DNA of 64,000 nucleotides from Thermodesulfobacteriota bacterium (GCA_025062045.1 JANXAF010000003.1:41444-105443), one strand, 5' to 3'; numbered from the stretch's first letter, positions 12,284 to 28,453 are shown. The notes: generated by a model from the sequence alone, not told the origin. Program-made: numbers and translations.

Positions 12284-12309
12284 AGCTTAACCCCCCCTTT
12301 TTGTTATCA

Positions 12310-12347
12310 ATTATCAGTGGAATAACCGTGATTGTCAATTCAGTTAT
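12310..12347. promoter_or_regulatory. divergent promoter/operator region between the UbiD operon and the LysR gene
   Basis: On the minus strand: TTGACA (12338-12333), a 17-nt spacer, GATAAT (12315-12310), about 27 nt before the ATG at 12283. On the plus strand: TTGTCA (12332-12337) and TATATA near 12356. Dyads are TTAT-N7-ATAA (12311-12325, T-N11-A type) and ATAAC-N16-GTTAT (12322-12347). Confidence 0.4.
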
Positions 12348-12371
12348 CCTTATGATATATAACTAAAGGTT

Positions 12372-13277
12372 ATGCTCTCTTTCTCCCTCAACTCCCTTCT
12401 CGTCTTCTGCGCTGTCGCAAAATTTGGTAGCTTCTCTAAGGCAGCGGAAGCGCTTTTTATGACACAGCCGGGTGTTTCTAATCACGTAAAGCAGTTGGAA
12501 GCTCAGATAGGAAAAAAGCTCATAGTGAGAGGTAAAAACGGTATACATTTGACGGGTGAGGGAAAAACCGTTTTTAAGTATGCGGAAAGGATCGATAGCC
12601 TCGCAGAAGAACTGGAAAGGTACATAAGGAATGTAAAAAAAGAAGAGAGTGTGGTTTTAAGGATCGCCATAACTACTGTATATTCAAAAGTTTTGATACC
12701 CACGCTCCTAGGTAGCTTTATAAGGAACTACCCTAATGTCACCATAAAGTTGGATCTAGCCAATACCCAAGAGATGTTAGGAAAAGTTTTAAAAGGTGAA
12801 GTTGACTGTGCAATCTTGGCCAATGCTAAAAGATCCAAAAGGATAGAAGTGGTACCACTTGTGCGAGAGGAACTGGTTCTCATTACAGACAAGGCACATC
12901 CGCTCAGTGCGTATGAAACGGTCTCTTTAAAAGAGATCGCAAAATTTCCGCTCATTATGAGGGAGGAAGGATCTGCCACAAGAAAGGTCGTTCTTCAGGC
13001 CTTTGAATCTCTGCGGATCAAACCTTCCATAGTATTCGAGGTAAAAAGTACTGAGTTTATAAAGGAATGGGTGATGGAGGGAAGAGGGATTTCAATTCTC
13101 ATAAATAGAGCCATTTCTGAGGAAGAGAAGAAACACATGAACGTCATAAAGATTGAAGAGCCCCTGTACCTTGAGGTTTCAATAGTTTTTTTAAAATCGA
13201 ATAGGACAAACCACGCAATAGAAAGATTTGTAAACCATATAGAGGAGCTCAAATCGAAATCCCTTCTTTGTTCGTGA
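12372..13277 (+). CDS. LysR-type transcriptional regulator
   Basis: 301 aa. Has an N-terminal wHTH (FCAVAKFGSFSKAAEALFMTQPGVSNHVKQLE) and a C-terminal substrate-binding fold. Divergent from the UbiD operon. Confidence 0.9.
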   Translation: MLSFSLNSLLVFCAVAKFGSFSKAAEALFMTQPGVSNHVKQLEAQIGKKLIVRGKNGIHLTGEGKTVFKYAERIDSLAEELERYIRNVKKEESVVLRIAITTVYSKVLIPTLLGSFIRNYPNVTIKLDLANTQEMLGKVLKGEVDCAILANAKRSKRIEVVPLVREELVLITDKAHPLSAYETVSLKEIAKFPLIMREEGSATRKVVLQAFESLRIKPSIVFEVKSTEFIKEWVMEGRGISILINRAISEEEKKHMNVIKIEEPLYLEVSIVFLKSNRTNHAIERFVNHIEELKSKSLLCS

Positions 13278-13392
13278 AGGACGATAAGTTTTCATTATAA
13301 TCAATAAGATAATGTGATTTGACCTTTTTTCTCTTTTTTCACAAAGATAACAATAGCTACACTGTAGAGTAAGCCATAAGGGGGGGTAAATT

Positions 13393-13977
13393 ATGGGACA
13401 GAAAGATTGGGCTAATCCTGCGCCATGGGCTATCCAGTCCGTGGCTGTTCTTACGGCCTGTGCAGGTTTTGTTTTTGCTGGACTTGTGCCTGAATCTAGC
13501 GTACCACTTATAATTGGGATTCTACTTTCCTGCGTAATTCCACAGCTAATAGGAGGCATAATCCTATTCAGAAGAAATGAAATCCTTCTAGGTACCATCT
13601 GTGCTCTTTTCGGCACAGTGATAACGATGGGGGCTGCCTTTACCCTTTACGAGATCGTGTTTATGGCTCCGAAAGCGGGTGCTTTTACCCCGGAACTCTT
13701 GGGAGTGTTTTGGTTCGTGCTTTTTATAATAACTGAGGTTTTTGCCATCGGTTTCGGAAGGGCAAGCTGGTTTTTACTTCTTGGAATAGCTGAAGTGGGA
13801 GTGGCATTCCTCTTTTTGAGCATCAACGCATGGACGGGTTCCCAGATTGCTGGAATTATCGGAGGCTGGCTCCTTATTTTATTTTCTGCTTTTTGCATCT
13901 ATGCTTCTTCGGCTCTTCTTCTTGCCGAGCATTTTGAAAAACCTATCTTACCGATAGGAAGGCCTATATTCAAATAA
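13393..13977 (+). CDS. AceTr / GPR1-FUN34-YaaH (SatP-like) family carboxylate channel
   Basis: 194 aa with about 6 hydrophobic helices. Has the N-terminal family signature ANPAPW (E. coli SatP has ANPAPLG) and the C-terminal LPIG as in SatP. Strong GGGGGG SD. Confidence 0.7.
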   Translation: MGQKDWANPAPWAIQSVAVLTACAGFVFAGLVPESSVPLIIGILLSCVIPQLIGGIILFRRNEILLGTICALFGTVITMGAAFTLYEIVFMAPKAGAFTPELLGVFWFVLFIITEVFAIGFGRASWFLLLGIAEVGVAFLFLSINAWTGSQIAGIIGGWLLILFSAFCIYASSALLLAEHFEKPILPIGRPIFK

Positions 13978-13988
13978 AGGGGGGAACT

Positions 13989-15842
13989 ATGAGACATACC
14001 ACGAAATTTCCTGACCCACACGAATATTTAAAAGAGATACCAGAAGAACTCTCCGGCTGGGAGGAGATGTACCCGCCCCACTTCCTCTTCGGAAAAGAAA
14101 GAGAGGAGTGGGAAAAAAGACAATTCTGGTATTTGGACAAGATACATGCTCCGAACCCGATGCCACCACTCGATCACATATTCCAGCAAGCTTGGCAGAT
14201 CTCACTCTCCCAGCACACTACAAGAGTTTTCTGTATTCCTCCTGCCCAAGGCGTAGCCCACAGAATAGTTGGGTGCTACCAGTACATCTGTGCAGTTGAG
14301 CCGCCACCTGAGGAAATAGTTGCCGAAAAGGCGGTCTTTTTCAAAGAGAGGGCCCATTACCCTGTTGAGCACTATGATGAACTATGGGATGAGTGGCTGA
14401 AAAGGTTCAGAGCCCTGGGAGAAGAATTACGAAACATTAAGGTACCGGAGCTATTACCGAAGTATCTTTCCCGGGAAGAGGTTTATCCCAACGACTACAG
14501 AGGTTACACTCAGGCGTACGAACTTATAGAAGCCTTCGACAGAATGGTTGACCTTTTGTACAAGGGGTGGCAGTACCACTTCAATCTTTTAAACCTTTGT
14601 TACCTTTACTATCTTATGTTTTATGACCTCGCAAGGAAGCTATTTCCGGGAATAAGCGAAAGTGCGATAGGGAAAATGATAGCAGGAGTTGAGGCTTACA
14701 TGTTTAAACCAGAAGAAGAACTCTGCAGACTCGCAAGGAGAGCCCATGCCGAACCGAAAGTTGCGGAGATACTCAAAAAGGATAAGCCCGCAAAAGAGAA
14801 GATGGAGGAACTCAAGACATTTGAGGTTGGAAGAAGATGGCTCGACGAACTTGAGGACTCAAAGGATCCATGGTTCTATGTGAGCTGCGGAAGTGGGTGG
14901 TACCATTACGAGGGAAGCTGGATAAATAATCTTGATATACCTTTCGGATACTTAAAGAGTTATCTCGAAAGGTTGGATAGGGGAGAAAAGATTGAAAGGT
15001 CACTTAGCGAGATTGCGGAAGCGAGAGAAAAGATTGTGAGCGAGTATAAAAGGCTCATAAAGACTGATGAAGACAGAGAAAGCTTTGAGAGTGCCTACCG
15101 CGATTGTCTAACCTTGTACAGATTCGCCGAAGGCCACATATTCTGGGTTGAGAACTGGCTCCACACAATATGGTTCGAAAAGGCAAGAGAAGTCGGAAGG
15201 GTTCTCGTTAAAGCCGGTGCTCTCAAGCACGAAGATGACATATTCATGTTCAACAGGCTCGAAATCCCGACTCTCATAGAAGACGTATGCACCGCCTGGG
15301 CACTTGGAGAGGGGGTACCCACGCTTAAATGGGCTGAGAAGGCAGAGAAGAGAAGAAAGATACTGGAGGCTGCCGCAAAATGGACACCTTCTCCCGCTTT
15401 AGGAGTACCTCCGAAAGAAGTTGCGGAGCCCTTTACTGTTATGCTCTGGGGTATAACGACTGAAAAGGTCGAAGAGTGGTTAAAAGGTGTGTCAATAAAA
15501 CCGGAAGAGGTGGTGGAGATAAAAGGTTTCGCTTCCTCCAAAGGCCAGGTAGAAGGTCCGGCAAGGGTCGTAAAGACCATAGAGGAGATAGTCACGCTCC
15601 AGGAGGGAGAGATACTAGTTTGTCCGTCAACCAATCCATCTTGGGCTCCTGTCTTTACGAAGATAAAAGCGGCTGTTACGGACATTGGAGGGGTTACATG
15701 CCACGCGGCAATCGTGGCAAGAGAATACGGGCTTCCTTCAGTCACTGGGACTGGAATTGCAACCCAGGTGATAAAGACGGGAGACATAATAAGGGTGGAT
15801 GGAGATACAGGTGTTGTGACAATTATAAAAAGGGCCGCATAA
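13989..15842 (+). CDS. PEP-utilising-enzyme family protein with a C-terminal phospho-histidine swivel domain (phenylphosphate synthase alpha-like)
   Basis: 617 aa. The C-terminus VTDIGGVTCHAAIVAREYGLPSVTG is the mobile-domain His motif. The N-terminus PEELSGWEEMYPPHFLF is typical of PpsA-like proteins. Confidence 0.75.
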   Translation: MRHTTKFPDPHEYLKEIPEELSGWEEMYPPHFLFGKEREEWEKRQFWYLDKIHAPNPMPPLDHIFQQAWQISLSQHTTRVFCIPPAQGVAHRIVGCYQYICAVEPPPEEIVAEKAVFFKERAHYPVEHYDELWDEWLKRFRALGEELRNIKVPELLPKYLSREEVYPNDYRGYTQAYELIEAFDRMVDLLYKGWQYHFNLLNLCYLYYLMFYDLARKLFPGISESAIGKMIAGVEAYMFKPEEELCRLARRAHAEPKVAEILKKDKPAKEKMEELKTFEVGRRWLDELEDSKDPWFYVSCGSGWYHYEGSWINNLDIPFGYLKSYLERLDRGEKIERSLSEIAEAREKIVSEYKRLIKTDEDRESFESAYRDCLTLYRFAEGHIFWVENWLHTIWFEKAREVGRVLVKAGALKHEDDIFMFNRLEIPTLIEDVCTAWALGEGVPTLKWAEKAEKRRKILEAAAKWTPSPALGVPPKEVAEPFTVMLWGITTEKVEEWLKGVSIKPEEVVEIKGFASSKGQVEGPARVVKTIEEIVTLQEGEILVCPSTNPSWAPVFTKIKAAVTDIGGVTCHAAIVAREYGLPSVTGTGIATQVIKTGDIIRVDGDTGVVTIIKRAA

Positions 15843-15845
15843 ATT

Positions 15846-15866
15846 CGGGGGCCTTTTCGGCCCCTG
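15846..15866 (+). promoter_or_regulatory. GC-rich intercistronic stem-loop with no T-tract
   Basis: The sequence is cgggggcc-ttttc-ggcccctg: an 8-bp stem (one G-U) and a 5-nt loop between the two synthase-like genes. No U-run follows, so it is not a classic intrinsic terminator. Confidence 0.5.
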
Positions 15867-15888
15867 TCGTCGATTGGGGGGATCTATT

Positions 15889-16950
15889 ATGGGAAAATTC
15901 ACCAAAGGATTCCATGAGATAAGAAAGGACATGTTCCAAATTTGCGGTGGAAAGGCTTCGCATCTAGGGGAGCTAACAAGTATAGGACTTAATGTTCCGT
16001 ATGGTTTTTGCGTCACCGCGGACGCTTTTTTCCATCATCTTAGAAAAAACAACCTCGAAAAGAGAGTATTTGAGATCGCAAAAACGATAAACTACGACGA
16101 CATATCAGATCTTGATAGAAAAACGGAAGAGATCCGTTCGCTAATTGAAAACGCGGATATGCCAGATGAAATTGCGGATGAAATAGTGGAAGGGTACGAA
16201 AGTTTAGGAAAGGACGAACCTTATGTGGCTGTGCGTTCGTCGGTTGCCATAAAGGATAGTGACATATCCTCATTTCCGGGACTCATGGACACGTACCACT
16301 ACGTAAAAGGAACTCAAGCAATTATGGACTACGTAAAGAAATGTTGGGCTTCGGTTTTTACGTCCAGGGCAACGGCAGCGCGGTATAGAAAAGGGATAGA
16401 ACACGAAAGGGCAATAATCGCGCCTATTATCCAGAGGATGGTAAATGCAAAGTGCGCCGGTGTTATGTTTACATTGAACCCCGTAGATGGAGACGTATCC
16501 AAAATCGTGATAGAAGGTGCTTGGGGAATAGGGGAAGGGGTCGTATCCGGAAATGTGACACCCGACAGATTCGTGATAGACAAAATATTGCTCGAAATTA
16601 ACGAGCGGAAAGTCTCCTTAAAAACGGTGAAGTACGTTTACGACCCGGAACTAAAACGACCATCATACAAGGAAGTACCAGAGGAAGATAAAAGTAGATG
16701 CTGTTTAGAGGAAAAGGAGATAATGGAACTTGTAAGACTCGCAAAACTTATAGAAAACCACTACAAGACTCCCATGGATATAGAGTGGGCTGTGGATAAA
16801 GACTTTGAATTTCCGAAGAACGTTTTTATACTCCAGGCCCGGGCCGAGTCTGTCTGGAGTAAGAAAAAAGCAGAGCCTGTAATAGGTAAAAAGAGTAGTT
16901 ATGAACTCTTGATGGAAAGGGCCATGAAAACTATAAAGGTTGGACAATAA
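15889..16950 (+). CDS. PPDK_N / ATP-grasp nucleotide-binding protein (phenylphosphate synthase beta-like)
   Basis: Has GGKASHLGEL...GLNVPYGFCVT and AVRSSVAIKDSDISSFPGLMDTY (PEP synthase N-domain pattern). I prefer the ATG at 15889 (GGGGGGA SD 6 nt upstream) over the track's TTG at 15874. Confidence 0.75.
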   Translation: MGKFTKGFHEIRKDMFQICGGKASHLGELTSIGLNVPYGFCVTADAFFHHLRKNNLEKRVFEIAKTINYDDISDLDRKTEEIRSLIENADMPDEIADEIVEGYESLGKDEPYVAVRSSVAIKDSDISSFPGLMDTYHYVKGTQAIMDYVKKCWASVFTSRATAARYRKGIEHERAIIAPIIQRMVNAKCAGVMFTLNPVDGDVSKIVIEGAWGIGEGVVSGNVTPDRFVIDKILLEINERKVSLKTVKYVYDPELKRPSYKEVPEEDKSRCCLEEKEIMELVRLAKLIENHYKTPMDIEWAVDKDFEFPKNVFILQARAESVWSKKKAEPVIGKKSSYELLMERAMKTIKVGQ

Positions 16951-17039
16951 CGAAGATAAGTCAAGACTTTAACCTAGAATTTTCTTGACATTCGCGATCT
17001 TTTTCGGTCTAGTTCAATAACGAATGTAAAACGGAGGGT

Positions 17040-18374
17040 ATGGTCATGGCAGAAAGAGATAGTATCTATTGGAATCCGATTCTAGAGACTATGCCTAAAG
17101 AGAAACTAAGGGAATTGCAAATAAAGAAGTTCAAAAGGATCTTTGAGTGGGCTTACAACAATTCTCCTTTTTACAGAAGGCTCTACAAAGAGGCAGGCAT
17201 TGAACCAGAAGACATAAAGTCATACGAAGACATAAAAAAAGTCCCAAAGATAGACAAAGGGATGTTGAGGGATGTTCAAACGAGAGAGCCATTCCCATAT
17301 GGAGATATACTTGCCGTTCCTTTAAGAGAAGTTGTTGTTTTCAGGCAGACGAGCGGAACGACAGGAACCCCTGTTTACCAAGCCGACACTTGGCAGGACT
17401 GGGAATGGTGGTCGGAATGCTGGGCATACATACTTTACGCACAGGGCTACAGAGAAGAAGATCGAGTCTTTCTTCCCTTTGGTTACAACGTGTTCGTTGC
17501 TTTCTGGGCGGCCCATTATGCTGCAGAAAAGATAGGATGTGAAGTTGTCCCGGGTGGGGTACTCGACACGGAAGCAAGGATCTTAAAAATGCAGGAGCTT
17601 AAATGTACGGCCTTTGCCGCAACCCCCACATACGTACTGGGTATGGCAGATACAGCGAGGAAAATGGGTATAGATCCAAGATCTTTGGGAATAAAGAGAA
17701 TTACATGTGCGGGTGAGCCGGGTGCGAGCATTCCGGCAACTAAAAAGAGAATTGAAGAGGCTTGGGGAGCAAAAGTTTATGATCATGCGGGTGCAACAGA
17801 GATCGGTGCGTGGGGATACATGTGCACTGAGCAGACGGGATTACACGTAAATGAAGCCTTCTTCCTTGTGGAGATTGAGGATGTGGAGACGGGTGAGATA
17901 GTAGAGGAGCCGATGAAGAACGGAAAGATGATCGTGACGGCTTTCGACAGATACGCAAAGCCCTGTATCCGTTTTGATTCGAAGGATATCATAAGGTGGG
18001 CAAACTACGATTGTCCCTGTGGCAGAACTTTTAGACTAATAGATGGCGGAGTAATAGGAAGGGCAGACGACATAACAAAGGTAAAAGGTGTACTACTTGC
18101 CCCAACTGCCATCGAAGAGGTAGTCCGGAGTTTTAAGGAGCTGAGTAACGAGTATGAGGTTATAGTCTCTAAAAAGGGCGACATAGATGACATACTCTTA
18201 AAAATTGAAATATTGCCCGAATACGAAAGTAAAAGAGAGGATATTCTTTCAAGACTTAAAGACCAGCTAAGGCTAAAGACGAATCTCGGTTACAGAATTG
18301 AAGTACACCCATTCGGTTCCCTTCCTAGGTACGATGTAAAGGCAAAGAGATTCAAAGACTTAAGGAAGCAGTAA
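17040..18374 (+). CDS. PaaK / coenzyme-F390-synthetase family aryl-acid CoA ligase
   Basis: 444 aa. Has RQTSGTTGTP and ITCAGEPG, and the PaaK-type short architecture. The true start may be the ATG at 17046. Confidence 0.75.
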   Translation: MVMAERDSIYWNPILETMPKEKLRELQIKKFKRIFEWAYNNSPFYRRLYKEAGIEPEDIKSYEDIKKVPKIDKGMLRDVQTREPFPYGDILAVPLREVVVFRQTSGTTGTPVYQADTWQDWEWWSECWAYILYAQGYREEDRVFLPFGYNVFVAFWAAHYAAEKIGCEVVPGGVLDTEARILKMQELKCTAFAATPTYVLGMADTARKMGIDPRSLGIKRITCAGEPGASIPATKKRIEEAWGAKVYDHAGATEIGAWGYMCTEQTGLHVNEAFFLVEIEDVETGEIVEEPMKNGKMIVTAFDRYAKPCIRFDSKDIIRWANYDCPCGRTFRLIDGGVIGRADDITKVKGVLLAPTAIEEVVRSFKELSNEYEVIVSKKGDIDDILLKIEILPEYESKREDILSRLKDQLRLKTNLGYRIEVHPFGSLPRYDVKAKRFKDLRKQ

Positions 18375-18386: not shown

Positions 18387-18569
18387 ATGGAGCATTACGA
18401 CATTTTCGCAATGGATAAAAAGATACAGGAGATAAAGGAAGCGGTCAAAGAACTCGAGAGGCTTGGGGAAGGAATAGAGGCTGTAAAAAGGAACTTAGTG
18501 CGACTTAAAGCGACTCTAAAGATGCTTGAACTAAATATCTCTGATGTAAAGCTTGTCTATCCTTCTTGA
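18387..18569 (+). CDS. 60-aa predicted helical/coiled-coil protein, unknown function
   Basis: Strong GGGAGG SD 7 nt upstream. Heptad-like K/E/L composition. 12 nt downstream of the ligase. Its 3' end overlaps the convergent Mo-enzyme gene by 13 nt. Confidence 0.5.
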   Translation: MEHYDIFAMDKKIQEIKEAVKELERLGEGIEAVKRNLVRLKATLKMLELNISDVKLVYPS

Positions 18570-20647
18570 GGATCAAGCCGTACTATCCTACAAGGTATCG
18601 CCCTAAGGTTGGGTGTCCCGAACTCCCTTCCAAACGGGGGGCTATCGTCTGTTAGGATATTTATATTGGACCTATCCCATCCGAATAAAGTCTCTTCCTT
18701 TTCCTCAGGAAAGTACCATCCGTAATCGCATAAAACTGTATTTTCGTGAATGTCCGGATTTATCTTTACCTTTTGGAGTATCCTTCCTTGCCGGGTTTCG
18801 ATGTATACGTAAGAACCCTCTTTTAAACCGAAAGATTCTGCAACGTCTGGATGGATCTCCACGCAGGGCTCAGGATACTTTTTTCTCAAAGCTTCTATAT
18901 TTTTTCCTCCAGAGTGTCTAAAATATGTGCGCTTAAGACTCGTAAGGATTAGAGGATATTGAGGATCTTTATCTTCACAAAGAACCTTTTCCAAATCGAC
19001 GGAAGGTAAAGGGGGAAAACCCCATTCTTCCAATCTTTTTGAATATATCTCCACCTTGCCAGAAGGCGTTGGGAAACCGTTTTGTATGTGATGGTTAGGT
19101 TTTGGCTCACCCTTTACGTATCCGATCTCGCATAAATCGTCAAACCTTATCCCTAAAGGAGAAAGGATGTAGTCGAGACACTCTTTTTCGGTTTTCCAGA
19201 AAAGATCTCCGAATCCGCAGGGAATGGAGAGTGCTCTTAAAATCTCATAATCCGATTTTGCTAGACCCACGTTTACCACTTTTTTCTGAGCCGAAAGGAC
19301 AGGGAGCGAATACGGTGGAAGGGAGAGGCTATCGAATTCAAAGAAAGTGGCCGAGGGAAGGAAATAGTGCGCTAAAGAGGCAGTTGGGGTCATAAAATGA
19401 TCAGAAACGACAAGAAGTTCAACCTTTCTTAGAGCTTCGTACACTTTTTTGGCATTCGGATAAGTAAGGAGAAAGTTTCCACCTTGAATGAATAAACCCT
19501 TTATTGGATAGGGGTCCTCTTTAAGGATGGCTTCAATTACAAGCTGAGGCAGCGCATAATAAAGATTGGGTAGCATGTAGCCTTTTCCACCGATCCTCCT
19601 TTTCCTCTCCTCCAAAGAGAGAAGGTTATGTAAGGTTAGTTCGGAAGAACCCCTTTCGATTATCGATGGAGCCTTGTAGTATATGTCCCCACCTGGAATA
19701 TTGAGATTTCCGGAAATAGCCCTCAAGATACATATCGCTCTTGCCGTCTGGAAGTTCTGAGTTGTGTGATCTATTCCGTTTCCCCATTGAATAACTGAAG
19801 GTTTAAGTCCTGCGTAGGCTTTTGCGATCTTTAAGATGAGATCCTTCGGTACGTCAGTTAATTTCTCCACCACTTCGGGTTTGAATGGATCCAACGTGTT
19901 TTTCAATTCTCCGAAGCCTATAGTATACTTCTCAACGAAATCTCTATCGTAAATTTCCTCTTTGACAATGACATAGATGAGGCCTAAGGCCAAAAGAAGA
20001 TCACTCCCAGGCCTTATCTTCACCCATAGATCCGCAATTTTTGCAATCTCAGTCTTTATGGGATCGATAACTATGAGAAAGGCTCCGCTTTTTTTTGCAT
20101 CTTTTATTCTCTCGTAAACATGATGAAGCGTCTCAGAGACGTTATTGGCCCATACTACAATGCACTTGGGTGGGTACTCGAGATCACATATCGCGTAAAA
20201 ACCGTAAGTCAATGTGGATGCCATCCTGCGCGGAATAAAGCAAACGTGTGCCATCGATGTGATATTTGGGCTTCCGAAAGCGTTGGCAAAACGGGAAAGG
20301 TAATCGTCGTGGAGACCCTTTGCAGACCCTCTCATGAAAACTATAGATTCCGGCCCGTATTGAGCCTTTATCTCCAATAACTTTTCAGCAATTTCTCCTA
20401 TTGCCTCATCCCAGGATATTTTTTTCCAAAGCTTCCCTTCTTTACGTAAGGGTATAGTGATCCTTTCTGGATGGTAAAGATAATCTATGGAGGTTAGCCC
20501 CTTTATGCAGAGCTTTCCTCGATTAAGAGGGTGATCAGGATCCCCCCTTACTTCGACGACCTTTGAATCCGAAACTTTAACGATGATTCCGCACCCTATC
20601 TGGCAAAGACCACAGGTGCTTTTAATCTCTCTTTGAGCGTATCTCAT
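18557..20647 (-). CDS. cytoplasmic molybdopterin (Mo/W-bisPGD, DMSO-reductase superfamily) enzyme with an N-terminal [4Fe-4S] site
   Basis: 696 aa. Has the N-terminal C-x2-C-x3-C...C motif (CGLCQIGCG...KLCIKG). No twin-arginine signal. A candidate metal-ligand Cys lies in SMAHVCFIP. FMTPTASLAHYFLP, TPSGKVEIYS and PNLRA are collinear with acetylene-hydratase-type members as I recall them. Confidence 0.8.
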   Translation of the reverse strand: MRYAQREIKSTCGLCQIGCGIIVKVSDSKVVEVRGDPDHPLNRGKLCIKGLTSIDYLYHPERITIPLRKEGKLWKKISWDEAIGEIAEKLLEIKAQYGPESIVFMRGSAKGLHDDYLSRFANAFGSPNITSMAHVCFIPRRMASTLTYGFYAICDLEYPPKCIVVWANNVSETLHHVYERIKDAKKSGAFLIVIDPIKTEIAKIADLWVKIRPGSDLLLALGLIYVIVKEEIYDRDFVEKYTIGFGELKNTLDPFKPEVVEKLTDVPKDLILKIAKAYAGLKPSVIQWGNGIDHTTQNFQTARAICILRAISGNLNIPGGDIYYKAPSIIERGSSELTLHNLLSLEERKRRIGGKGYMLPNLYYALPQLVIEAILKEDPYPIKGLFIQGGNFLLTYPNAKKVYEALRKVELLVVSDHFMTPTASLAHYFLPSATFFEFDSLSLPPYSLPVLSAQKKVVNVGLAKSDYEILRALSIPCGFGDLFWKTEKECLDYILSPLGIRFDDLCEIGYVKGEPKPNHHIQNGFPTPSGKVEIYSKRLEEWGFPPLPSVDLEKVLCEDKDPQYPLILTSLKRTYFRHSGGKNIEALRKKYPEPCVEIHPDVAESFGLKEGSYVYIETRQGRILQKVKINPDIHENTVLCDYGWYFPEEKEETLFGWDRSNINILTDDSPPFGREFGTPNLRAIPCRIVRLDPQEG

Positions 20648-21633
20648 AGTTTAAAAAGAGTTTTTGCATTTTCGGAGAAGATCTTTTGGCCTTCCTCAGT
20701 AGAGAGATTTAGAGATTTGAGACTCTCTATTGCCCTTTCCACACCTCCTATTGGATGAGGATAATCGGTCCCAAAGAGCACATGGTCGATCCCCATGTAT
20801 TCTATCGCACACCTCATCGCGGGCAAGTGGAAGGAGACGGTGTCGATGTAAACGTTCGTTTTGTAATATATAGAAGGTTTTTTCATTGCTGAAAATTTAA
20901 AATCCTTTCCGTAGGTTTCATATGCGTCATCCACTCTTCTCACCAGATAAGGAAATACCCCTCCAAGGTGAGGATGGATGACCTTTAGGTTTTGAAACCT
21001 GTCGAAAACACCGAATAGTATGAGTCCTGCAACTGCAATAGTCGTATCCATGATGAATCCAAAAAGGGGGATTGGCATCATGACCTTTTTTAGAACTGTT
21101 GTAGTAATAGGAGGTCCTGGATGAACAAGGATTGGAAGATCAAAATTCGATGCGGCCTCGTATATCGGATAAAATTCCTGGAAGTATATCGGTTTACCAG
21201 CGACATTTGAGAACATAATAACTCCTTTTGCGTCAAGATCCCTCTTTGCCCGTTCTAGTTCCTTTACTGATGCTAAAACGTCTTGAATGGGAAGAGTCGC
21301 CAAAAAATGAAGTCTCCCTTTGCTCTTTTGACATATGGAAGCAAAATAGTCATTGAGCTTTTTTGCCCAAAAAACACCATCCCTTTTAGGCAGTAACTCT
21401 ACACTCGGTGTCGTAAGACTCATCAGATTGACATCTATTCCTTTTTCATCCATATCCTTGATCCTTTCTTCCACATCCAAATGTCCCTTTTTTTCGATTG
21501 TTGCAAGCCTCGTTCCCTTAAAGTAGATGAGAATCTTCTCTTCCTTTTTTCTGATCGTTATCGTTTTAGAGTGGCTTTCCAGATAGTCAAGCCATTCTTT
21601 CGGGTATAAATGGTTATGGACATCTATTAACAA
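20644..21633 (-). CDS. amidohydrolase_2 (ACMSD/gamma-resorcylate-decarboxylase family) protein with the canonical HxH motif
   Basis: 329 aa. Has IDVHNHLYP, ILVHPG, IHPHLGG and LFGTDYPH. There is a 4-nt ATGA overlap with the Mo-enzyme gene. Confidence 0.8.
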   Translation of the reverse strand: MLIDVHNHLYPKEWLDYLESHSKTITIRKKEEKILIYFKGTRLATIEKKGHLDVEERIKDMDEKGIDVNLMSLTTPSVELLPKRDGVFWAKKLNDYFASICQKSKGRLHFLATLPIQDVLASVKELERAKRDLDAKGVIMFSNVAGKPIYFQEFYPIYEAASNFDLPILVHPGPPITTTVLKKVMMPIPLFGFIMDTTIAVAGLILFGVFDRFQNLKVIHPHLGGVFPYLVRRVDDAYETYGKDFKFSAMKKPSIYYKTNVYIDTVSFHLPAMRCAIEYMGIDHVLFGTDYPHPIGGVERAIESLKSLNLSTEEGQKIFSENAKTLFKL

Positions 21634-21642: not shown

Positions 21643-21846
21643 CTAGTAAAGCATCTCCACAGGGAAGAAAATCTTTATGGCACCCATCGGACACTCAAGT
21701 CTACAGGACCCACAGTGCCAGCATTCATCGGCATACTTGACAATTGGCATATTTTTTTCGGAATCGAAATGTATAACATCCAAAGGACATATCTTATCGC
21801 ACATCCCACATCCAGAACATCTATCCATATCTATATTCGGGGGCAT
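21643..21846 (-). CDS. 2x[4Fe-4S] mini-ferredoxin, AprB-N-terminal-domain-like (copy A)
   Basis: 67 aa. Has CSGCGMCDKICP and CWHCGSCRLECP. Overall pattern is MPP.I....C.GC...C....K......CW.C..C...CP.GAI. Confidence 0.85.
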   Translation of the reverse strand: MPPNIDMDRCSGCGMCDKICPLDVIHFDSEKNMPIVKYADECWHCGSCRLECPMGAIKIFFPVEMLY

Positions 21847-21861: not shown

Positions 21862-23547
21862 TTAAGGAATTTTGTCATAGCTTAACTTTTTAAACTCTTT
21901 TACAACTTTCCCATCTTTCTGAAAGATCACTATTTCCCCCTCAAACTCTTCCTTTGTCTCCGGATAGTCAGAACGGAAATGGAAGATTCCGAACCTAGTT
22001 TCTTTCCTTTCCAACGAAGCATGGCACATGATCGTACCGATATCTATCAGTTGGTTTGTTTCATGAACTCTCATAAGCTCGTGAAAATCTTTTGCCTTGA
22101 GAGCTTGCGCCTCCTCTTTTAAGCTTTGAAGCTTATCTATTGCCAGATTTAAACTTTTTTCATTTCTTACGGGTCCTGCGTATTCCCACATCACTCTCCT
22201 TATTACATTTTCCACTGTTTTATGATCTAGATTTCCAGTGACCCATAGCGGTCTATAGATTGCTTCTTTTAGTCTCTGAATCTCTTTTTTATCGACTCTT
22301 ATTGGGTGAGAGTAGTTTTTGGCATATTCAGCCGCCACTTTGCCGGAAAGATATCCTCCGGTTGTGCACAAATGCACGCATCGCATCTGGTCAGTACAGT
22401 CACCACAGGCAAAGAGGCCTTCTATCGAACTTGATGTCCTCTCGTCTATCATTATTCCGCTTCCACAAACTTCAGAAGGACCTGCCTGCATACCTTCCGA
22501 ATACATAACCTCCAAAGGTTCTTTAGAGAGATCCACCCCCTTTTGTTCCAAAAAATCAGGAAGGGTATCTTTGTCGTAACCGAGTGTCCGTTTTAGATGG
22601 TTTAGATCAGCTTCCGAGAGGTGGGTACAGTCGATGTAAATCGGTCCGTTTCCCATTTGGATCTCTTTCATGACCGCATAAACAAGCATACTTCTTGGAG
22701 CTTTGTTCCCCATAGGATGGTATTTTGCCATAAATTCCTCGCCGTAAGCGTTGATCAACCTTCCACCCATTCCCATAAGAGCGTTCAATCCGGCCGCACT
22801 GAACCCTTTCGGCACGACCGTAATCCTCATGTACTCCATGTTTGCGAGCTTGGCACCGACTTTATAAGCCATAACTTGTGCTGCTCCAGTATTTTGTGGA
22901 CACTGCCAAGTATTAAAAGGGAGCCCTGTTGGGTTATGGAAGAGCCTTGTTGTGCATCCTGTGGCTAAAATAGTCGCCTTCGCTTTAACTATATAAAAAT
23001 CCCCCGTTCTTATATTAAAGCCAACTGCGCCTATAACTCGTTCCCCATCATAGAGGAGATCGGTCATCATACATCTCTCTAAGGCAAAGACCCCAAGTCT
23101 TCTTGCTTCTTTTGCTAAAGCCGGTTTGAGATTCTTACCGTTAAAGTTTATGAAATAGGGTCCTGGCTGTCCTAAGGACTGGGTCCTAAGATACTTACCG
23201 TCACTCTGTTTAAGGGTGCATCCTATCTTTTCCATCCTTTCTAGTGCCGCCTCAAGTTCCTTGCAGAAGACTGCATCCTGTACCTTCAAATCTACTGCTC
23301 CTCGGGCGATCTTCGCCACATAACTTAGGTACGCTTCTCTCGTATCCCACGGTCCTGTATTGAGATAGGCCATGAAATGGTCAACCCCTCCGGCGGTTGC
23401 CCCGCATCTTTCGAGTGTCCCTTTATCTGCCACTATAACTTTTACGTTTTTCTCTAGTGCGCCAAGCGCCGCATTATTACCGGCAAGCCCACCGCCTACT
23501 ATGAGAACGTCCGTTTCGAATTCGTATTCTCTTATGTTTCCGATCAT
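21862..23547 (-). CDS. AprA-like FAD flavoprotein of the succinate dehydrogenase/fumarate reductase/APS reductase superfamily (copy A)
   Basis: 561 aa. Has an N-terminal DVLIVGGGLAGNNAA dinucleotide fold. FYIVKAKATILATG, NAYGEEF, GPIYID and DFHELMRVHE...RKETRFGIFHFRSDYPE are collinear with A. fulgidus AprA as I recall it. Confidence 0.75.
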   Translation of the reverse strand: MIGNIREYEFETDVLIVGGGLAGNNAALGALEKNVKVIVADKGTLERCGATAGGVDHFMAYLNTGPWDTREAYLSYVAKIARGAVDLKVQDAVFCKELEAALERMEKIGCTLKQSDGKYLRTQSLGQPGPYFINFNGKNLKPALAKEARRLGVFALERCMMTDLLYDGERVIGAVGFNIRTGDFYIVKAKATILATGCTTRLFHNPTGLPFNTWQCPQNTGAAQVMAYKVGAKLANMEYMRITVVPKGFSAAGLNALMGMGGRLINAYGEEFMAKYHPMGNKAPRSMLVYAVMKEIQMGNGPIYIDCTHLSEADLNHLKRTLGYDKDTLPDFLEQKGVDLSKEPLEVMYSEGMQAGPSEVCGSGIMIDERTSSSIEGLFACGDCTDQMRCVHLCTTGGYLSGKVAAEYAKNYSHPIRVDKKEIQRLKEAIYRPLWVTGNLDHKTVENVIRRVMWEYAGPVRNEKSLNLAIDKLQSLKEEAQALKAKDFHELMRVHETNQLIDIGTIMCHASLERKETRFGIFHFRSDYPETKEEFEGEIVIFQKDGKVVKEFKKLSYDKIP

Positions 23548-23549: not shown

Positions 23550-24575
23550 CTAATTTAGTCTCAGTAATCTTTTTGCATTTCCCTCAAATATAGCAGTCTT
23601 GTCTTCCTCCGTAAGAATGTCGAGAGTCTCGATTATATGGATAGTTTCTCTTATGTAAGGAGAGTCCTCCTCGTGTATGTTTGGACGTGAGTCGAAGGGC
23701 ATGTCGGTTCCAAATAGTACATGATCGACCCCAAAAAAGAGGATTCCACACCTTGTGGATTCTTTTGCGCCGAAAAGAGCTGTGTCCGCATAGAACATTT
23801 TAAAGTAATCGATCGGTCTTTTCTTCATAGATTTTATGAGGGATTCGTAGTCTTCACCGGAAGTCCTAGAACCGAGCATGTCCCATGCTGGTCCAACCCT
23901 TCCAGCCTGGTAAGGTGCTATCCCGCCCAGGTGATGGGTTATTATCTTTATGGAGGGGTACTTCTCGAAGATTCTGGAGAAGACTAAGTGTGCCATGCAC
24001 ACACTCGTCTCATACGGCCATCCGAATATGAACCATATCTCGTAATGGCTTTTCGTTTCCGCCTTATAATCGGGAAAGTCAGAACCCCTCGTGGGGTGTA
24101 TCCATATGGGTCTTTCGATTTCTGCCATGTATTTGAATAGGGGTTCAAATTCTGGCCTATCCAATGGTTTCCCAAGGACATTGGTAAAGAGCTGAATCCC
24201 GAAAGCTCCAAGCTCATCTATTGCACGTTGAGCCTCTTTTAGTGAAGCGTCTATGTCATTCAATGGAAGGGAGGCGACAAACCCCAAAAACCTATCGGGG
24301 TATCTATCTACGATCTCTTTCATTGAGTCATTTGCGATCCTTGCAAGCTCGTATGTGACATTCGGTGGGCCGAATGTTTCGATTGGTGGAGCCGCAAGGG
24401 TCAAAACCTGAACGTAATTTTCAAACTTATCCATGATTCTAAATCTGTCTTCGAGCTCGTAGAGGGCATAAATATTTCGCACCCTTTTGTTCATATCTTT
24501 CGCATGGGGCGCGAGCTTTTGGACCTTATCCAGGTATTTTTTTGGCAAGATGTGGCAGAACATATCGATCTTCAT
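23550..24575 (-). CDS. amidohydrolase_2 (ACMSD-family) protein, atypical F-x-H N-terminal motif (copy A)
   Basis: 341 aa. Has KIDMFCHILP (ACMSD has KIDIHSHILP), PIWIHP, ITHHLGG and LFGTDMPFD. Confidence 0.8.
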   Translation of the reverse strand: MKIDMFCHILPKKYLDKVQKLAPHAKDMNKRVRNIYALYELEDRFRIMDKFENYVQVLTLAAPPIETFGPPNVTYELARIANDSMKEIVDRYPDRFLGFVASLPLNDIDASLKEAQRAIDELGAFGIQLFTNVLGKPLDRPEFEPLFKYMAEIERPIWIHPTRGSDFPDYKAETKSHYEIWFIFGWPYETSVCMAHLVFSRIFEKYPSIKIITHHLGGIAPYQAGRVGPAWDMLGSRTSGEDYESLIKSMKKRPIDYFKMFYADTALFGAKESTRCGILFFGVDHVLFGTDMPFDSRPNIHEEDSPYIRETIHIIETLDILTEEDKTAIFEGNAKRLLRLN

Positions 24576-26452
24576 CTCTTACTCCTCTTTATCCATTCGT
24601 AGATTATAAAGGGGGCCGATATTGAAAGGCCTACTATATCGTAAATTACTCCCGGCACCATAACTGTGAGACCACTTAGGAATAGAATCGCCCTGACCCA
24701 TAATTTTAGTTCGCTAAAAAGATAGCCCTCAACTCCGATAGCGAGAAGTACCACACCTATGACTCCAAAAATTATGGACTCGACTATTTCGATAGGTGAC
24801 CCGATGAGGATTAGACTCGGTTTAAATATGAATATGAAGGGCACAATGTAAGCAACGATACCTAGCTTCATCGCCTGGTATGCGGTTTTGAGCATATCAT
24901 CCTCTGCTATAGCCGCTGCCGCGTACGCTGCAAGGCAAACAGGTGGGGTGAGAAAAGAAAGAACTGCGAAATAAAAGACGAAAAAATGGGCAAGAATCGG
25001 TTGTATTCCAAGCTCAATAAGGGCGGGGGCAGCAAGCGTTACCATAAGGAGATAAGAACCGGTTGCGGGCATTCCCATACCGAGAATCACTGCTCCAAAT
25101 GCCGTAAGGAGAAGTAGAGGTACGATCTTCTTCCCGGCAAGTTCAACTAGAAGAGCTGAGAACGAAAATGCAAGTCCCGTAATGGAAAGAATCCCTATAA
25201 GAATTCCAGCTCCTGCACATGTTATACAGATCTCCAGGAAAAATCTTCCACATTCCGAGAATATGGGGAAGATACTTTTTGCTCTCACTCTTTTTAGCAC
25301 GAGCCACCCTAGAAGAAATGCGAATGCTGTAGTATAGATACCCGCGTATTCAGCCTCCATCTGCTTAAAAAAGAGAAGATATATGAGAAGTAGAAATGGG
25401 ATGGATATAAGCCAATTCTTTTTCAAAGTTTGGTATAGGGATGGGATTTTACTTTTCTCCATCCCTTTAAGTCCCAACTTTGCGGCCTCCAGATCTACTT
25501 GAACGAAAACGGCAAAATAGTAAAGTAAAGCGGGTATTATGGCGGCGATAGCGACCTTTGCGTATGGAATTCCTAGAAAGGTGGCCATGATAAATGCCGA
25601 CGCTCCCATAATGGGAGGCATAATCTGGCCGCCTGTTGAAGAGACGGCCTCTACAGCCCCTGCGTAGTAAGGCTTGTAGCCGGCTTTCTTCATAAGAGGT
25701 ATGGTGAATGTGCCTGTTGTTACAACGTTGGCAACCGCGCTTCCAGAAATCATGCCGAAAAGGGAAGATGCGAAAACAGCTACCTTCGCCTGACCTCCTC
25801 TAAATCTTCCTAAAATCGATGTTGCCACATCGTTAAAAAACTCACCCAAGCCGACCTTTGATATGGTCTGTCCGAATAGAATGAATACGAGAACGACTGT
25901 GGATGATACGATAACAGGAACCCCAATTATCCCTTGAGGATCAACGTAGAGGTAGTTGGCCAAATTCTTCCAAGAGACACTCTTTAGGCCTAGTGGAAGG
26001 TGGGAAAGAAAAAGGGCGACCAGTATGAAAAAGACGATAATTACTAAAAAAGGGTATCCCGTAACCCTTCTTATTGCCTCAAGGGTAAGTAGGATGGCAA
26101 GTATGCCTAAAAAGATCCTGTGGGGTTTTAAGAGCCCGACTTCTATCATTATTTCGTCGTAGAAGATGCCCAGATAAAAGAAGCAGAAAAGAGAAACAGA
26201 TGCAAAGACGAAATCGTAAAAAGGGACTTTATCTGAGGTTATCCTTCTTGAGGGACGGATGAATATAAAAGTTGAAAAGAGTGTAAGTCCGTAGATCAAA
26301 GCTACCCATTGGTGGATGTGGAATGACTTAGAGAAGTATGCAGGGAGGTTTAGAATAGCTGTTATCGCAAGGAGGGGGATAAGGAATAGGCCTAAGTTTC
26401 CGACTATCTTCGCTATCCCCCCCGGATCCCTAAAACGGGATACCCTTTCCAT
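24572..26452 (-). CDS. TRAP transporter fused permease (TAXI-associated DctQM-type)
   Basis: 626 aa and polytopic. Has GGQAKVAVFASSLFGMISGSAVANVVTTGTFTIPLMKKAGY. It is a clear paralog of 42451..44301. Confidence 0.85.
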   Translation of the reverse strand: MERVSRFRDPGGIAKIVGNLGLFLIPLLAITAILNLPAYFSKSFHIHQWVALIYGLTLFSTFIFIRPSRRITSDKVPFYDFVFASVSLFCFFYLGIFYDEIMIEVGLLKPHRIFLGILAILLTLEAIRRVTGYPFLVIIVFFILVALFLSHLPLGLKSVSWKNLANYLYVDPQGIIGVPVIVSSTVVLVFILFGQTISKVGLGEFFNDVATSILGRFRGGQAKVAVFASSLFGMISGSAVANVVTTGTFTIPLMKKAGYKPYYAGAVEAVSSTGGQIMPPIMGASAFIMATFLGIPYAKVAIAAIIPALLYYFAVFVQVDLEAAKLGLKGMEKSKIPSLYQTLKKNWLISIPFLLLIYLLFFKQMEAEYAGIYTTAFAFLLGWLVLKRVRAKSIFPIFSECGRFFLEICITCAGAGILIGILSITGLAFSFSALLVELAGKKIVPLLLLTAFGAVILGMGMPATGSYLLMVTLAAPALIELGIQPILAHFFVFYFAVLSFLTPPVCLAAYAAAAIAEDDMLKTAYQAMKLGIVAYIVPFIFIFKPSLILIGSPIEIVESIIFGVIGVVLLAIGVEGYLFSELKLWVRAILFLSGLTVMVPGVIYDIVGLSISAPFIIYEWIKRSKR

Positions 26453-26455: not shown

Positions 26456-27469
26456 TTACCTTTTTAGCTGAGCGATAAGCCTGGACTGGATCTCTTCCAT
26501 CTCTTTTGTCCAGAGTCCTTTTTCTTTGAAGTATTTGACTACGCCAGGATGGTAAGGGATTACTATATCCTTAGAGACGAAAACGTCTTGATCCCAATCT
26601 TTTAAGAGTTTATGGACAAGCTCAAACTCTTTATAGTTCTCATAAAGAGCCTTGACTATTGTATAAGCGACACTGTCAGGGAGCTCAGCCGTTGTTGCGA
26701 GATAGATGTCATAGACCCATAGGTACTGTTCCCCGCTTATGCCGACCGTACCAGGTCCTTCCTTAACCTTTGCCATGTAACCTGGAAAATACTTTTTCAT
26801 CCTCTCAACGAGATGGGGTGAGGGATCGAGTGGCAAGTATCTGGCACCCTTTTTAGCGTTGAGTTCCTCGATCACGGGAGAACCGAGCGTTATTGTGCCT
26901 GAAGCATCGGCCCTACCCTCGATTACCGCTTTTACCCCATCGGGTGGGGAATGGACAGGGACCATTATCACGTCTTTTTCCTCGAGCCCTCCGTTGGCTA
27001 AAAGGGCTAGGGTCTGGAGTGTTATGGAAGTCCTAGGGTATTTCCCTGCCACCTTCTTCCCTTTAAGATCGGCTATCTTTCTTACAGGAGAGTCCTTAGG
27101 CACAACGATTCCGATCTTATTCGGGACAGTGGGCGTGAGGATTCTCAAATTCGGAAAGCCCTTTCCCTGAGAAAGTTTCTCCCATTCGTACTTGCCTAAA
27201 ACTGCCATCTCCGCGTCCCACATGTTCATGACTCCTAGTTGTATCTCACCCCTTGCCATATAAGGCATCCACGCCTCCGGCCCCGACATCGGTTTAACTA
27301 TCGCCTTAAGGTTAGTCTTTTCATTTATGACTTTTGCTGCGGCAACACCGATTGTGTGGAAGAACGCACCTATTGGATTCGTTCCAATGTTTATCTGATC
27401 GGTCGAAAAGGAAAGATTGGCGAAAAATAGTATGAAAGAGGCTAAAAAAAGAAGAGTTGTCACTTTCAT
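26456..27469 (-). CDS. TAXI-family TRAP solute-binding protein with signal peptide
   Basis: Has the N-terminal signal MKVTTLLFLASFILFFANLSFS and a periplasmic-binding fold. I prefer the ATG at 27469 (GGGGG SD) over the track's GTG at 27484. Confidence 0.75.
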   Translation of the reverse strand: MKVTTLLFLASFILFFANLSFSTDQINIGTNPIGAFFHTIGVAAAKVINEKTNLKAIVKPMSGPEAWMPYMARGEIQLGVMNMWDAEMAVLGKYEWEKLSQGKGFPNLRILTPTVPNKIGIVVPKDSPVRKIADLKGKKVAGKYPRTSITLQTLALLANGGLEEKDVIMVPVHSPPDGVKAVIEGRADASGTITLGSPVIEELNAKKGARYLPLDPSPHLVERMKKYFPGYMAKVKEGPGTVGISGEQYLWVYDIYLATTAELPDSVAYTIVKALYENYKEFELVHKLLKDWDQDVFVSKDIVIPYHPGVVKYFKEKGLWTKEMEEIQSRLIAQLKR

Positions 27470-28269: not shown

Positions 28270-28377
28270 GAAAAGCGGATAACAAGTAAAAAATCCTTAG
28301 GATTGCGTATAGAACAAATTTTGTTAGACCAATAGGTGTGGACAAGGAAAAAAAAATCGATTAAACTTATACCAAAT

Positions 28378-28453
28378 CGGGGCGTGGCGCAGCCTGGTCT
28401 AGCGCACTTGCTTGGGGTGCAAGAGGTCGCAGGTTCAAATCCCGTCGCCCCGA
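28378..28453 (+). tRNA. tRNA-Pro (anticodon GGG)
   Basis: Hand-folded cloverleaf. Acceptor CGGGGCG/CGCCCCG plus discriminator A. D-arm GCGC-AGCCTGGTCTA-GCGC. Anticodon arm CTTGC-TTGGGGT-GCAAG. T-loop TTCAAAT, with the T-stem carrying one G-U and one A-C mismatch. No encoded CCA. Confidence 0.85.

Follow-up and report, generated by a model that had tools for sequence, protein, structure and literature searches.

The window analysed here is a stretch of 64,000 nucleotides from the metagenome-assembled genome (MAG) of a Thermodesulfobacteriota bacterium (GCA_025062045.1 JANXAF010000003.1:41444-105443). It encodes a molybdenum/tungsten-bis(pyranopterin guanine dinucleotide) (Mo/W-bisPGD) enzyme, present in NCBI as MCS7280608.1 / MDW8001881.1, which is assigned as a soluble, Cys-ligated member of a family that is large and uncharacterised and lies in the acetylene-hydratase/catechol-dehydroxylase branch within the superfamily named after dimethyl sulfoxide (DMSO) reductase; it contains the N-terminal [4Fe-4S] cluster motif FS0. 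Its gene and that of AH2_2, one of two neighbouring Amidohydro_2 enzymes, are the distal two genes of an eight-gene operon headed by a GntR/FCD transcriptional regulator (Table 1). The function that we favour, tentatively, is that the operon may degrade a hydroxylated aromatic acid by decarboxylation combined with Mo-dependent reductive dehydroxylation.

Table 1. Features of the window that bear on the Mo/W enzyme and its genomic context.
Feature	Position	Strand	Remarks
Mo/W-bisPGD enzyme	18557..20647	-	696 aa; Pfam PF04879+PF00384+PF01568
AH2_2, Amidohydro_2 enzyme	20644..21633	-	329 aa; PF04909, 127 bits
2x[4Fe-4S] ferredoxin	21643..21846	-	67 aa; AprB-like core without AprB tail
AprA-like FAD flavoprotein	21862..23547	-	561 aa; PF00890+PF02910
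AH2_1, Amidohydro_2 enzyme	23550..24575	-	341 aa
TRAP fused permease	24572..26452	-	TIGR02123, 618 bits
TAXI-family TRAP solute-binding protein	26456..27469	-	likely start ATG at 27469 after AGGGGG Shine-Dalgarno
GntR/FCD transcriptional regulator	27481..28230	-	first gene of run
Phenylphosphate synthase module and ligase	13393..18374	+	194-aa protein (PpsC?), PpsA-like 617 aa, PpsB-like 358 aa, PaaK-type aryl-CoA ligase 444 aa
Carboxylase block	6075..13277		UbiX, UbiD-family protein, phenylphosphate carboxylase alpha and beta, two PpcD-like phosphatases, LysR
Second paralogous cassette	45768..51550	-	flavoprotein-2 553 aa, ferredoxin-2 76 aa, TctC, TctB, TctA, Amidohydro_2 enzyme

Fold, cofactor residues and substrate pocket of the Mo/W enzyme

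The Mo/W protein begins with MRYAQREIKSTC12GLC15QIGC19 and carries FS0 as C12-x2-C15-x3-C19...C47. Since only 11 residues lie ahead of Cys12, there is no room for a signal of the twin-arginine translocation (Tat) type, and the frame is open, with no internal stop and no TGA. A preliminary description of this DNA had reported the [4Fe-4S] motif and the absence of a Tat signal and of an in-frame TGA, all borne out by the translation and the family alignment, and had compared the overall layout with that of acetylene hydratase, which indeed proved to be the best match in both sequence and structure. In a PDB sequence search (phmmer), acetylene hydratase came first (325 bits, E 7.6e-96), the CO2 reductase's FdhF (251 bits) came next, ahead of PsrA/PhsA (241 bits), and BLASTP aligned it with the Mo/W protein at 31% identity over 715 residues. 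An AlphaFold2 model computed from 34 family members (pLDDT 89, pTM 0.90) also retrieved acetylene hydratase first in Foldseek (E 2e-59, TM 0.88), with PsrA at TM 0.84 and FdhH at TM 0.80. The enzyme of Pelobacter/Syntrophotalea acetylenicus (2e7z) resembles the window protein in its length of about 700 aa, the lack of a Tat signal and the single catalytic subunit, as well as in the Cx2Cx3C...C motif, the bridging Lys, the Cys ligand and an equivalent of Trp293 (315-325 bits).

Active-site residues were counted in an alignment of 34 family members, for which the acetylene hydratase sequence was rebuilt from the phmmer alignment, its numbering matching the published residues. C12/C15/C19/C47 and Lys49 align with Cys9/12/16/46 and the bridging Lys48 of acetylene hydratase and are invariant or nearly so. 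Cys136, the Cys of HVCFIP that had been put forward as the likely metal ligand, pairs with the W ligand Cys141 and is invariant in 34/34 members. The pocket fares differently. The Asp13 position is occupied by Gln16 in the window protein, as the preliminary description had observed for the residue after the second cluster Cys, and by Gln (21/34), His (5/34), Pro (4/34) or Ala (2/34) across the family. The hydrophobic ring of acetylene hydratase, which we take to consist of Ile14, Ile113, Ile142, Trp179, Trp293 and Trp472 with Phe611 nearby, is largely replaced: only Ile14 (Ile17 in the window) and Trp293 (Trp288) have equivalents, so that two of the six are kept. Ile113, Ile142 and Trp472 are replaced by Ala109, Phe137 and Pro445, and the nearby Phe611 by Arg577, a position that is Arg in 33 of the 34 members. 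The Trp179 region reads T-L-H-H in the window protein, with the phmmer and MAFFT alignments differing by two residues.

A further motif, C-x-x-P-R, starts at the Cys ligand and takes the form C-F-I-P-R in the window. It occurs in 34/34 family members, in 6/6 intermediate nearest relatives and in 4/4 Coriobacteriia proteins that are dehydroxylase-like in architecture; acetylene hydratase (CIGNT) and FdhF (CHAPT) lack it, and 1/52 other relatives carries it. Gln16, Phe137, Arg140 and Arg577 together mark a pocket that, as far as homology can tell, is distinct and is predicted to be larger and cationic, and the replacement of the acetylene pocket suggests a larger, polar or anionic substrate. Because that pocket and the essential Asp13 are not kept, the Mo/W enzyme is not an acetylene hydratase; this identity was rejected although the cofactor residues agree.

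None of the NCBIfam equivalog models (Fdh, Phs, Nas, Dms and others) reached its cut-off with the Mo/W protein, the top scores being 359 bits for Fdh-alpha (cut-off 666) and 317 bits for PhsA (cut-off 694). A neighbour-joining (NJ) tree was built from 103 relatives and bootstrapped 200 times on a subset of 56 sequences; the family was monophyletic in 200/200 bootstraps. In 158/200 it grouped with acetylene hydratase, a few intermediate lineages and the Coriobacteriia dehydroxylase-like proteins, which are without the FS0 cysteines and whose genes are followed by one for a 113-aa 4Fe-4S protein. The Mo/W protein clustered neither with FdhF nor with the Tat-bearing Psr/Phs-like proteins, the comparison by which the preliminary description had suggested checking it. 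An ordinary formate or inorganic-substrate enzyme (FdhF or PsrA/PhsA type) that merely happens to be sited in this operon is therefore highly improbable, since the two top NCBIfam scores that would point to it are far under their cut-offs, Phe follows Cys136 where formate dehydrogenase has His after its ligand, neither a Tat signal nor a PsrB/PsrC-type partner is present, the tree places the protein elsewhere, and organic-acid transporters and catabolic genes recur as its neighbours. A formate dehydrogenase or Psr/Phs identity was rejected on the scores, the Phe and the tree.

Operon layout and partner proteins

The operon runs from the GntR/FCD gene through the TAXI binding protein, the TRAP permease, AH2_1, the flavoprotein, the ferredoxin and AH2_2 to the Mo/W enzyme, with spacers of at most 15 nt throughout. 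The TGA stop of AH2_2 overlaps the ATG of the Mo gene in an ATGA at 20647..20644, and a second ATGA overlap joins the TRAP permease to AH2_1. AH2_2 starts with TTG, 6 nt past a GGAGGG Shine-Dalgarno, and the ferredoxin gene ends 9 nt upstream of it. A TTGACA-N17-TAAAAA element lies upstream of the GntR gene at about 28240-28268; promoter and terminator scans gave counts equal to the shuffle background and no internal signal. The upstream boundary (28377..30333) is formed by tRNA-Pro(GGG), surE and a class V fructose-1,6-bisphosphatase (FBPase_3, 539 bits). At the opposite end, an open reading frame (ORF) of 60 aa (18387..18569, +) follows the PaaK-type ligase, and its last 13 nt are shared with the 3' end of the Mo gene, to which it is convergent; it has no Pfam match and is 67-73% identical in the related loci L001, L081 and L082.

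ORF calls and Pfam confirmed the 696-aa and 329-aa frames that the preliminary description had placed on the minus strand, together with their ATGA overlap. The coupled pair that it had seen in them stood as far as the overlap goes and fell as a two-gene unit: the ferredoxin, the flavoprotein and further genes lie upstream with short spacers, and the pair is therefore the distal end of the eight-gene operon. Its statement that no FeS electron-transfer subunit is adjacent was wrong, as the 2x[4Fe-4S] ferredoxin and the AprA-like FAD protein are encoded just upstream. Neither a four-cluster beta subunit nor a membrane subunit was found in the window between 17 and 29 kb.

In AH2_2 the metal-site and catalytic residues of the ACMSD type are intact, namely H6, H8, H171, H222, R233 and D290, which are conserved in 59-60 of 60 relatives, so that its earlier description as an amidohydrolase of the decarboxylase type is sustained. 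It has its fold in common with the ACMSD-family decarboxylases (ACMSD, LigW, gamma-resorcylate and isoorotate decarboxylase) and, like them, an HxH/His/Asp metal site, a catalytic His and an inter-subunit Arg; it is about equidistant from all four (111-131 bits, human ACMSD at 131 bits). The substrate-binding Arg47 of ACMSD (human numbering) is not kept in the AH2_2 family, which has Thr or His there, and no NCBIfam model matched. AH2_2 forms a subfamily of its own, tied to the AprA-like flavoprotein. In AH2_1, F-x-H replaces H-x-H, and the nearest structure is the uncharacterised 3ij6. The hydratase LigJ and the C-C hydrolase LigY are also among the PDB matches of the amidohydrolases.

The nearest structures to the flavoprotein are the alpha subunit of the dissimilatory-type PAPS reductase from Methanothermococcus thermolithotrophicus (8a8o, 228 bits) and AprA (1jnr, 166 bits), and the NCBIfam aprA models scored below cut-off. 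Asn74, Arg265 and His398 of AprA (A. fulgidus numbering) are replaced by Met59, Val245 and Gln354, kept so in 52-58 of 59 relatives, and the Arg of RGEGG and the His of HPT of fumarate reductase are missing as well. Because the catalytic residues of both are absent, the flavoprotein is neither an APS/PAPS reductase nor a fumarate reductase, and these identities were rejected; its family has conserved motifs of its own, GVDHFMAY, RITVVPKG and SEGMQAGPSE. With AprAB and the PAPS reductase (8a8o), the flavoprotein and ferredoxin have in common the AprA fold and a tail-less AprB-like architecture. The AprAB-like complexes that the DiSCo authors pointed out have sulfur genes around them, whereas the neighbours of the window flavoprotein are carboxylate transporters and amidohydrolases. 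The JGI annotation names the flavoprotein family, including P0125, P0129 and many others, 'adenylylsulfate reductase subunit A', a mislabelling that probably gives rise to false aprA calls in metagenomes and could inflate sulfur-cycle gene counts. The TAXI binding protein has only distant PDB relatives (at most 71 bits), which gave no clue to its substrate.

Distribution of the family and its gene neighbourhoods

More than 120 clusters, at 47-70% identity, make up the Mo/W family, and a relative of the window protein is encoded in at least 577 stretches of JGI metagenome contigs. Syntrophorhabdaceae, other Desulfobacterota and Chloroflexi are among the hosts of the family. The full eight-gene operon is kept only in the close relatives L001, L081, L082 and L106 (66-70% Mo identity), always beside the same convergent genes. 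In the synteny shared with L001, the Mo enzyme is the least conserved protein (68% identity), while AH2_2, the ferredoxin and the flavoprotein are at 73-77% and AH2_1, the TAXI protein and the phenol-pathway proteins at 86-91%. At 47-55% Mo identity the neighbours vary and include TRAP or MFS transporters, FAD oxidoreductases, CoA ligases, ADP-forming acyl-CoA synthetases, PrpD/MmgE, or nothing obvious. An orthologue in a GTDB MAG (L009 11678, 54% identity) was considered as a selenocysteine variant and rejected, as its in-frame stop is a TAA at residue 564, away from the ligand position; the probable explanation is a pseudogene or an assembly error. In L086 (10158..13702), the genes after a Mo member of 51% identity are of the GlcD-like FAD_binding_4, Fer4_8/CCG and ETF kinds, a set reminiscent of the GlcDEF-like proteins that were put forward in 2026 for the anaerobic activation of benzene (PMC13101534); the likeness may be a coincidence.

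Within the same range of 47-55%, linkage to the partners of the window enzyme was found in L091, L092, L093, L104, L118 and L170. The order is GntR-TAXI-TRAP-AH2_2-Mo-flavoprotein-ferredoxin in L091 and L092, where the flavoprotein is a paralogue of the flavoprotein-2 type (45-47% identity) and L091 has a UbiD gene in addition, TAXI-TRAP-AH2_2-Mo in L093 and GntR-TAXI-TRAP-AH2_2-flavoprotein-ferredoxin-Mo in L118. In L104 the Mo gene is convergent with ferredoxin-flavoprotein-AH2_2-TRAP-TAXI-GntR, and in L170 the ferredoxin precedes it. That these partners are kept although their genes are rearranged speaks for a functional link with the Mo/W enzyme. Relatives of the flavoprotein at 62-67% identity form a cassette with a 68-aa ferredoxin, TAXI-TRAP and an amidohydrolase of the AH2_2 type (orthologues at 56-59% identity), to which L089 adds GntR/FCD, and the ferredoxin adjoins the flavoprotein in L088-L092, L104 and L118. 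In L088 and L089 the cassette stands without any Mo gene, which indicates that AH2_2 is primarily a companion of the flavoprotein and the Mo enzyme an optional module. A conserved two-gene AH2_2-Mo unit was rejected, since AH2_2 orthologues stay with the flavoprotein and ferredoxin even where there is no Mo gene; the link between AH2_2 and the Mo enzyme is real but secondary. Genes for NrfD/PsrC-like, four-cluster FeS, NarI-like, CCG/HdrD-like and multihaem cytochrome proteins precede the flavoprotein in L088 (1..8794) and L089 (3103..8446), which suggests that it is linked to membrane quinone-interacting complexes.

The genes for the flavoprotein, the ferredoxin and the Mo enzyme adjoin one another in differing orders (window, L091, L092, L118, L170), which would also suit a single FAD-[4Fe-4S]2-FS0-Mo wire that couples an oxidation to a reduction on a non-aromatic or heterocyclic carboxylate, the amidohydrolases acting as decarboxylase, hydratase or C-C hydrolase. 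The likeness of the AH2_2 metal site to those of ACMSD and isoorotate decarboxylase agrees with this, as does the presence of LigJ and LigY in Amidohydro_2. However, the Mo module and the flavoprotein module each occur without the other, and the flavoprotein paralogue differs between arrangements (28-30% identity), so we regard such a wire as improbable.

A Mo sub-clade (42-47% identity) is flanked by PpsAB-like (PPDK_N/PEP-utilizer) genes, similar to those for both subunits of phenylphosphate synthase, in 11 of 80 metagenomic loci and L084; these loci include L121, L125, L152-L157, L160 and L163 from metagenomes. Genes for acyl-CoA dehydrogenase, C_GCAxxG, Pyr_redox_2, aldehyde:ferredoxin oxidoreductase (AOR), CoA ligase or enoyl-CoA hydratase often accompany them. 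PpsAB-like kinases would phosphorylate hydroxyl or enol groups, and their presence fits a Mo/W centre that is a non-redox hydratase or lyase, activating water on an unsaturated or partly reduced intermediate other than acetylene. This intermediate could be the product of the flavoprotein step, or an enol or keto compound later trapped by the kinases. Acetylene hydratase is the nearest solved relative, FS0 and Lys49 are kept as in that enzyme, whose cluster serves no net redox function, and the many family members without a dedicated electron-transfer partner would suit such chemistry. On the other side stand the replacement of the essential Asp13 by Gln, His, Pro or Ala, the retention of only two of the six ring residues, the C-x-x-P-R motif shared with the dehydroxylase-like proteins and not with acetylene hydratase, and the recurrence of flavoproteins and ferredoxins beside the family. 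Taken together, a hydratase or lyase is rather unlikely.

Elsewhere in the window, flavoprotein-2 of the second paralogous cassette shares 28% identity with its counterpart in the operon, and the Amidohydro_2 enzyme of that cassette shares 45% with AH2_1. The region around it (39853..44301, + and 51835..53487, +) contains a third TAXI binding protein (NMT1_3, 320 bits), a fused TRAP permease and two AMP-dependent CoA ligases, and is rich in genes for the uptake and activation of organic acids. Near the window's start (708..4946, + and 5020..6078, -) lie genes for an alpha/beta hydrolase, a type-B carboxylesterase (366 bits), an acetyl-CoA-synthetase-like ligase and an FMN_dh-like protein; these enzymes at the edge of the aromatic island could be an ester-cleaving front end.

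A candidate role in the anaerobic degradation of aromatic acids

The region 6075..18374 encodes a complete anaerobic phenol (phenylphosphate) pathway, which adjoins the Mo gene and is convergent with it. Phenylphosphate carboxylase alpha matches TIGR02723 with 646.6 bits (cut-off 564.6) and the beta subunit TIGR02724 with 621.6 bits (cut-off 468.95); the UbiD-family protein of the block is thus the third of its kind beside these two subunits, and the 194-aa PpsC candidate has no family match. The synteny of this block is kept in the close relatives L001, L081 and L082, and its adjacency strengthens the aromatic context that the preliminary description had assumed. To this context also belong the PpsAB-like genes beside family members in 11 of 80 metagenomic loci and in L084, and the UbiD gene of L091. 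In the model that we favour, the TAXI-TRAP system would import a hydroxylated aromatic carboxylate, AH2_2 would take off the carboxyl group without redox chemistry, and the Mo/W enzyme, in the manner of the catechol dehydroxylases, would reductively eliminate a hydroxyl from the ring, its electrons coming from the small ferredoxin through FS0. The AprA-like flavoprotein would carry out a further flavin-dependent redox step, and the monophenol product would enter the adjacent phenylphosphate synthase/carboxylase and CoA-ligase pathway. We consider this full scheme possible, and hold it with less than even confidence.

Catechol dehydroxylases are the sister group of acetylene hydratase, and their environmental homologues have been anticipated in general terms (PMC7028382). 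Those of the Gordonibacter type are soluble and have no Tat signal, no FS0 cysteines and a small 4Fe-4S partner (PMC7028382; PMC11574389). The window enzyme shares with these proteins (Dodh, Cldh, Eadh1/2) the soluble, Tat-less form and the small FeS protein; it was placed in the same branch and has C-x-x-P-R in common with the Coriobacteriia dehydroxylase-like proteins. It differs in keeping the FS0 cysteines and in its identity of 28%, and, unlike the Eggerthella type (Dadh, Hcdh, Cadh), it is without a Tat signal and membrane anchor. The strongest external support for the model comes, by analogy, from the ellagic-acid (eam) cluster of gut bacteria, which combines a metal-dependent decarboxylase (IPR032465), two dehydroxylases, 4Fe-4S proteins, transporters and a regulator and converts ellagic acid to urolithins (bioRxiv 10.1101/2025.01.17.632430). 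The window follows the same logic of decarboxylase, dehydroxylase, FeS protein, transporter and regulator. The eam decarboxylase presumably belongs to the ACMSD family. As in the dehydroxylase clusters, FeS protein, transporter and regulator are encoded together with the Mo/W enzyme, yet their families differ from those of the gut clusters: TAXI-TRAP stands in place of an MFS transporter and GntR in place of LuxR, and an AprB-like ferredoxin goes together with an AprA-like flavoprotein. The host differs too, being an environmental Thermodesulfobacteriota MAG. The setting in an operon with a transporter, decarboxylase-type enzymes, a flavoprotein and a ferredoxin also distinguishes the window gene from that of acetylene hydratase.

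The preliminary description had proposed, as a speculation, that the amidohydrolase decarboxylates a hydroxybenzoate and that the resulting phenolic ring is hydroxylated or hydrated by the Mo/W enzyme, citing pyrogallol transhydroxylase and resorcinol hydroxylase as precedents. On the pattern of these, the enzyme would either hydroxylate the ring with water (resorcinol hydroxylase) or shift a hydroxyl (transhydroxylase). The intact decarboxylase-type active site of AH2_2, the translational coupling of its gene to the Mo gene and the aromatic neighbourhood are in keeping with this, and the ferredoxin and flavoprotein could take electrons away. The precedents resemble the window enzyme in being DMSO-reductase-family enzymes that act on phenolic rings in anaerobes. 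They proved remote, however: pyrogallol-phloroglucinol transhydroxylase matched with 28 bits (E 3.8e-6) and came at Foldseek rank 21 with 19% identity. Its architecture also differs: the alpha subunit is larger, has a Ser ligand and is devoid of FS0, which the window enzyme has, and the beta subunit contains three clusters. Water-dependent ring hydroxylation is said in the reviews of Philipp and Schink to need high-potential acceptors, and is reportedly known from nitrate reducers. Reductive dehydroxylation suits a low-potential anaerobe better; the present host is a Thermodesulfobacteriota MAG whose adjacent pathway consumes phenol, and the nearest characterised aromatic-ring enzymes in the branch are reductive dehydroxylases. 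Hydroxylation is thus less likely than reductive dehydroxylation, and as a model in its own right it is decidedly doubtful.

Several observations weigh against reductive dehydroxylation. The Mo/W family is uncharacterised, and the Coriobacteriia proteins that stand for the dehydroxylases in the tree are dehydroxylase-like by architecture only. The grouping of the family with these proteins to the exclusion of acetylene hydratase was recovered in only 110/200 NJ bootstraps, and the identity of the window protein to acetylene hydratase (31%) slightly exceeds that to a Coriobacteriia dehydroxylase-like protein (28%). Asp13 is lost, with no established alternative catalytic residue. Many members of the family stand alone or without an electron-transfer partner, and the occurrence of the flavoprotein/ferredoxin/AH2_2 cassette without any Mo gene in L088 and L089 implies that the ferredoxin is first of all the partner of the flavoprotein. 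The H-x-H site of AH2_2 is as in ACMSD and isoorotate decarboxylase, and several hydroxybenzoate decarboxylases carry E-x-H instead. The phenol cluster is convergent, has a LysR regulator of its own and is adjacent in one lineage only (window, L001, L081 and L082). Finally, the model leaves the roles of AH2_1 and the flavoprotein unexplained.

A broader proposal starts from four parts that recur together: an AprB-like ferredoxin lacking the tail, an AprA-like flavoprotein in which every APS-reductase residue is lost, an amidohydrolase of the ACMSD type and a tripartite transporter for carboxylates. This cassette might constitute an undescribed route by which strict anaerobes process hydroxylated aromatic acids independently of CoA and ATP, with the flavoprotein as a ferredoxin-dependent reductase of the ring or its substituents and the Mo/W enzyme as an environmental counterpart of the dehydroxylases that feeds this route or the phenol pathway; we offer it as a speculation with a small chance of being correct. 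One candidate role for the flavoprotein is that of the ferredoxin-dependent resorcinol reductase, a genetically orphan enzyme. The subunit of that reductase is reportedly about 50 kDa, which does not match the 62-kDa flavoprotein. A paper that deals with the activity names no gene for it (PMC10470551). In the literature library that was searched, no paper on the Mo/W family or the flavoprotein cassette was found, and in two 2026 papers on benzene activation acetylene hydratase appears only in the reference lists.

Nothing in these findings overturns current understanding. Only two kinds of enzyme have been characterised in this branch of the DMSO reductase superfamily, acetylene hydratase and the gut catechol dehydroxylases, and we know of no study of the environmental dehydroxylase homologues that were predicted in 2020. 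What appears to be new is a branch member that is FS0-containing, Tat-less and single-subunit, with a predicted distinct pocket and in a new partner set. The window defines an abundant family with the signature of FS0, C-x-x-P-R and Arg577 and with two recurrent partner sets, and its Mo/W enzyme is a good but unproven candidate for the oxygen-free trimming of plant-derived aromatic acids. Should such enzymes indeed dehydroxylate polyphenolic acids in sediments, in peat and in digesters, this would bear on the mineralisation of phenolics in the absence of oxygen and would provide new catalysts for the cleavage of aryl C-O bonds.

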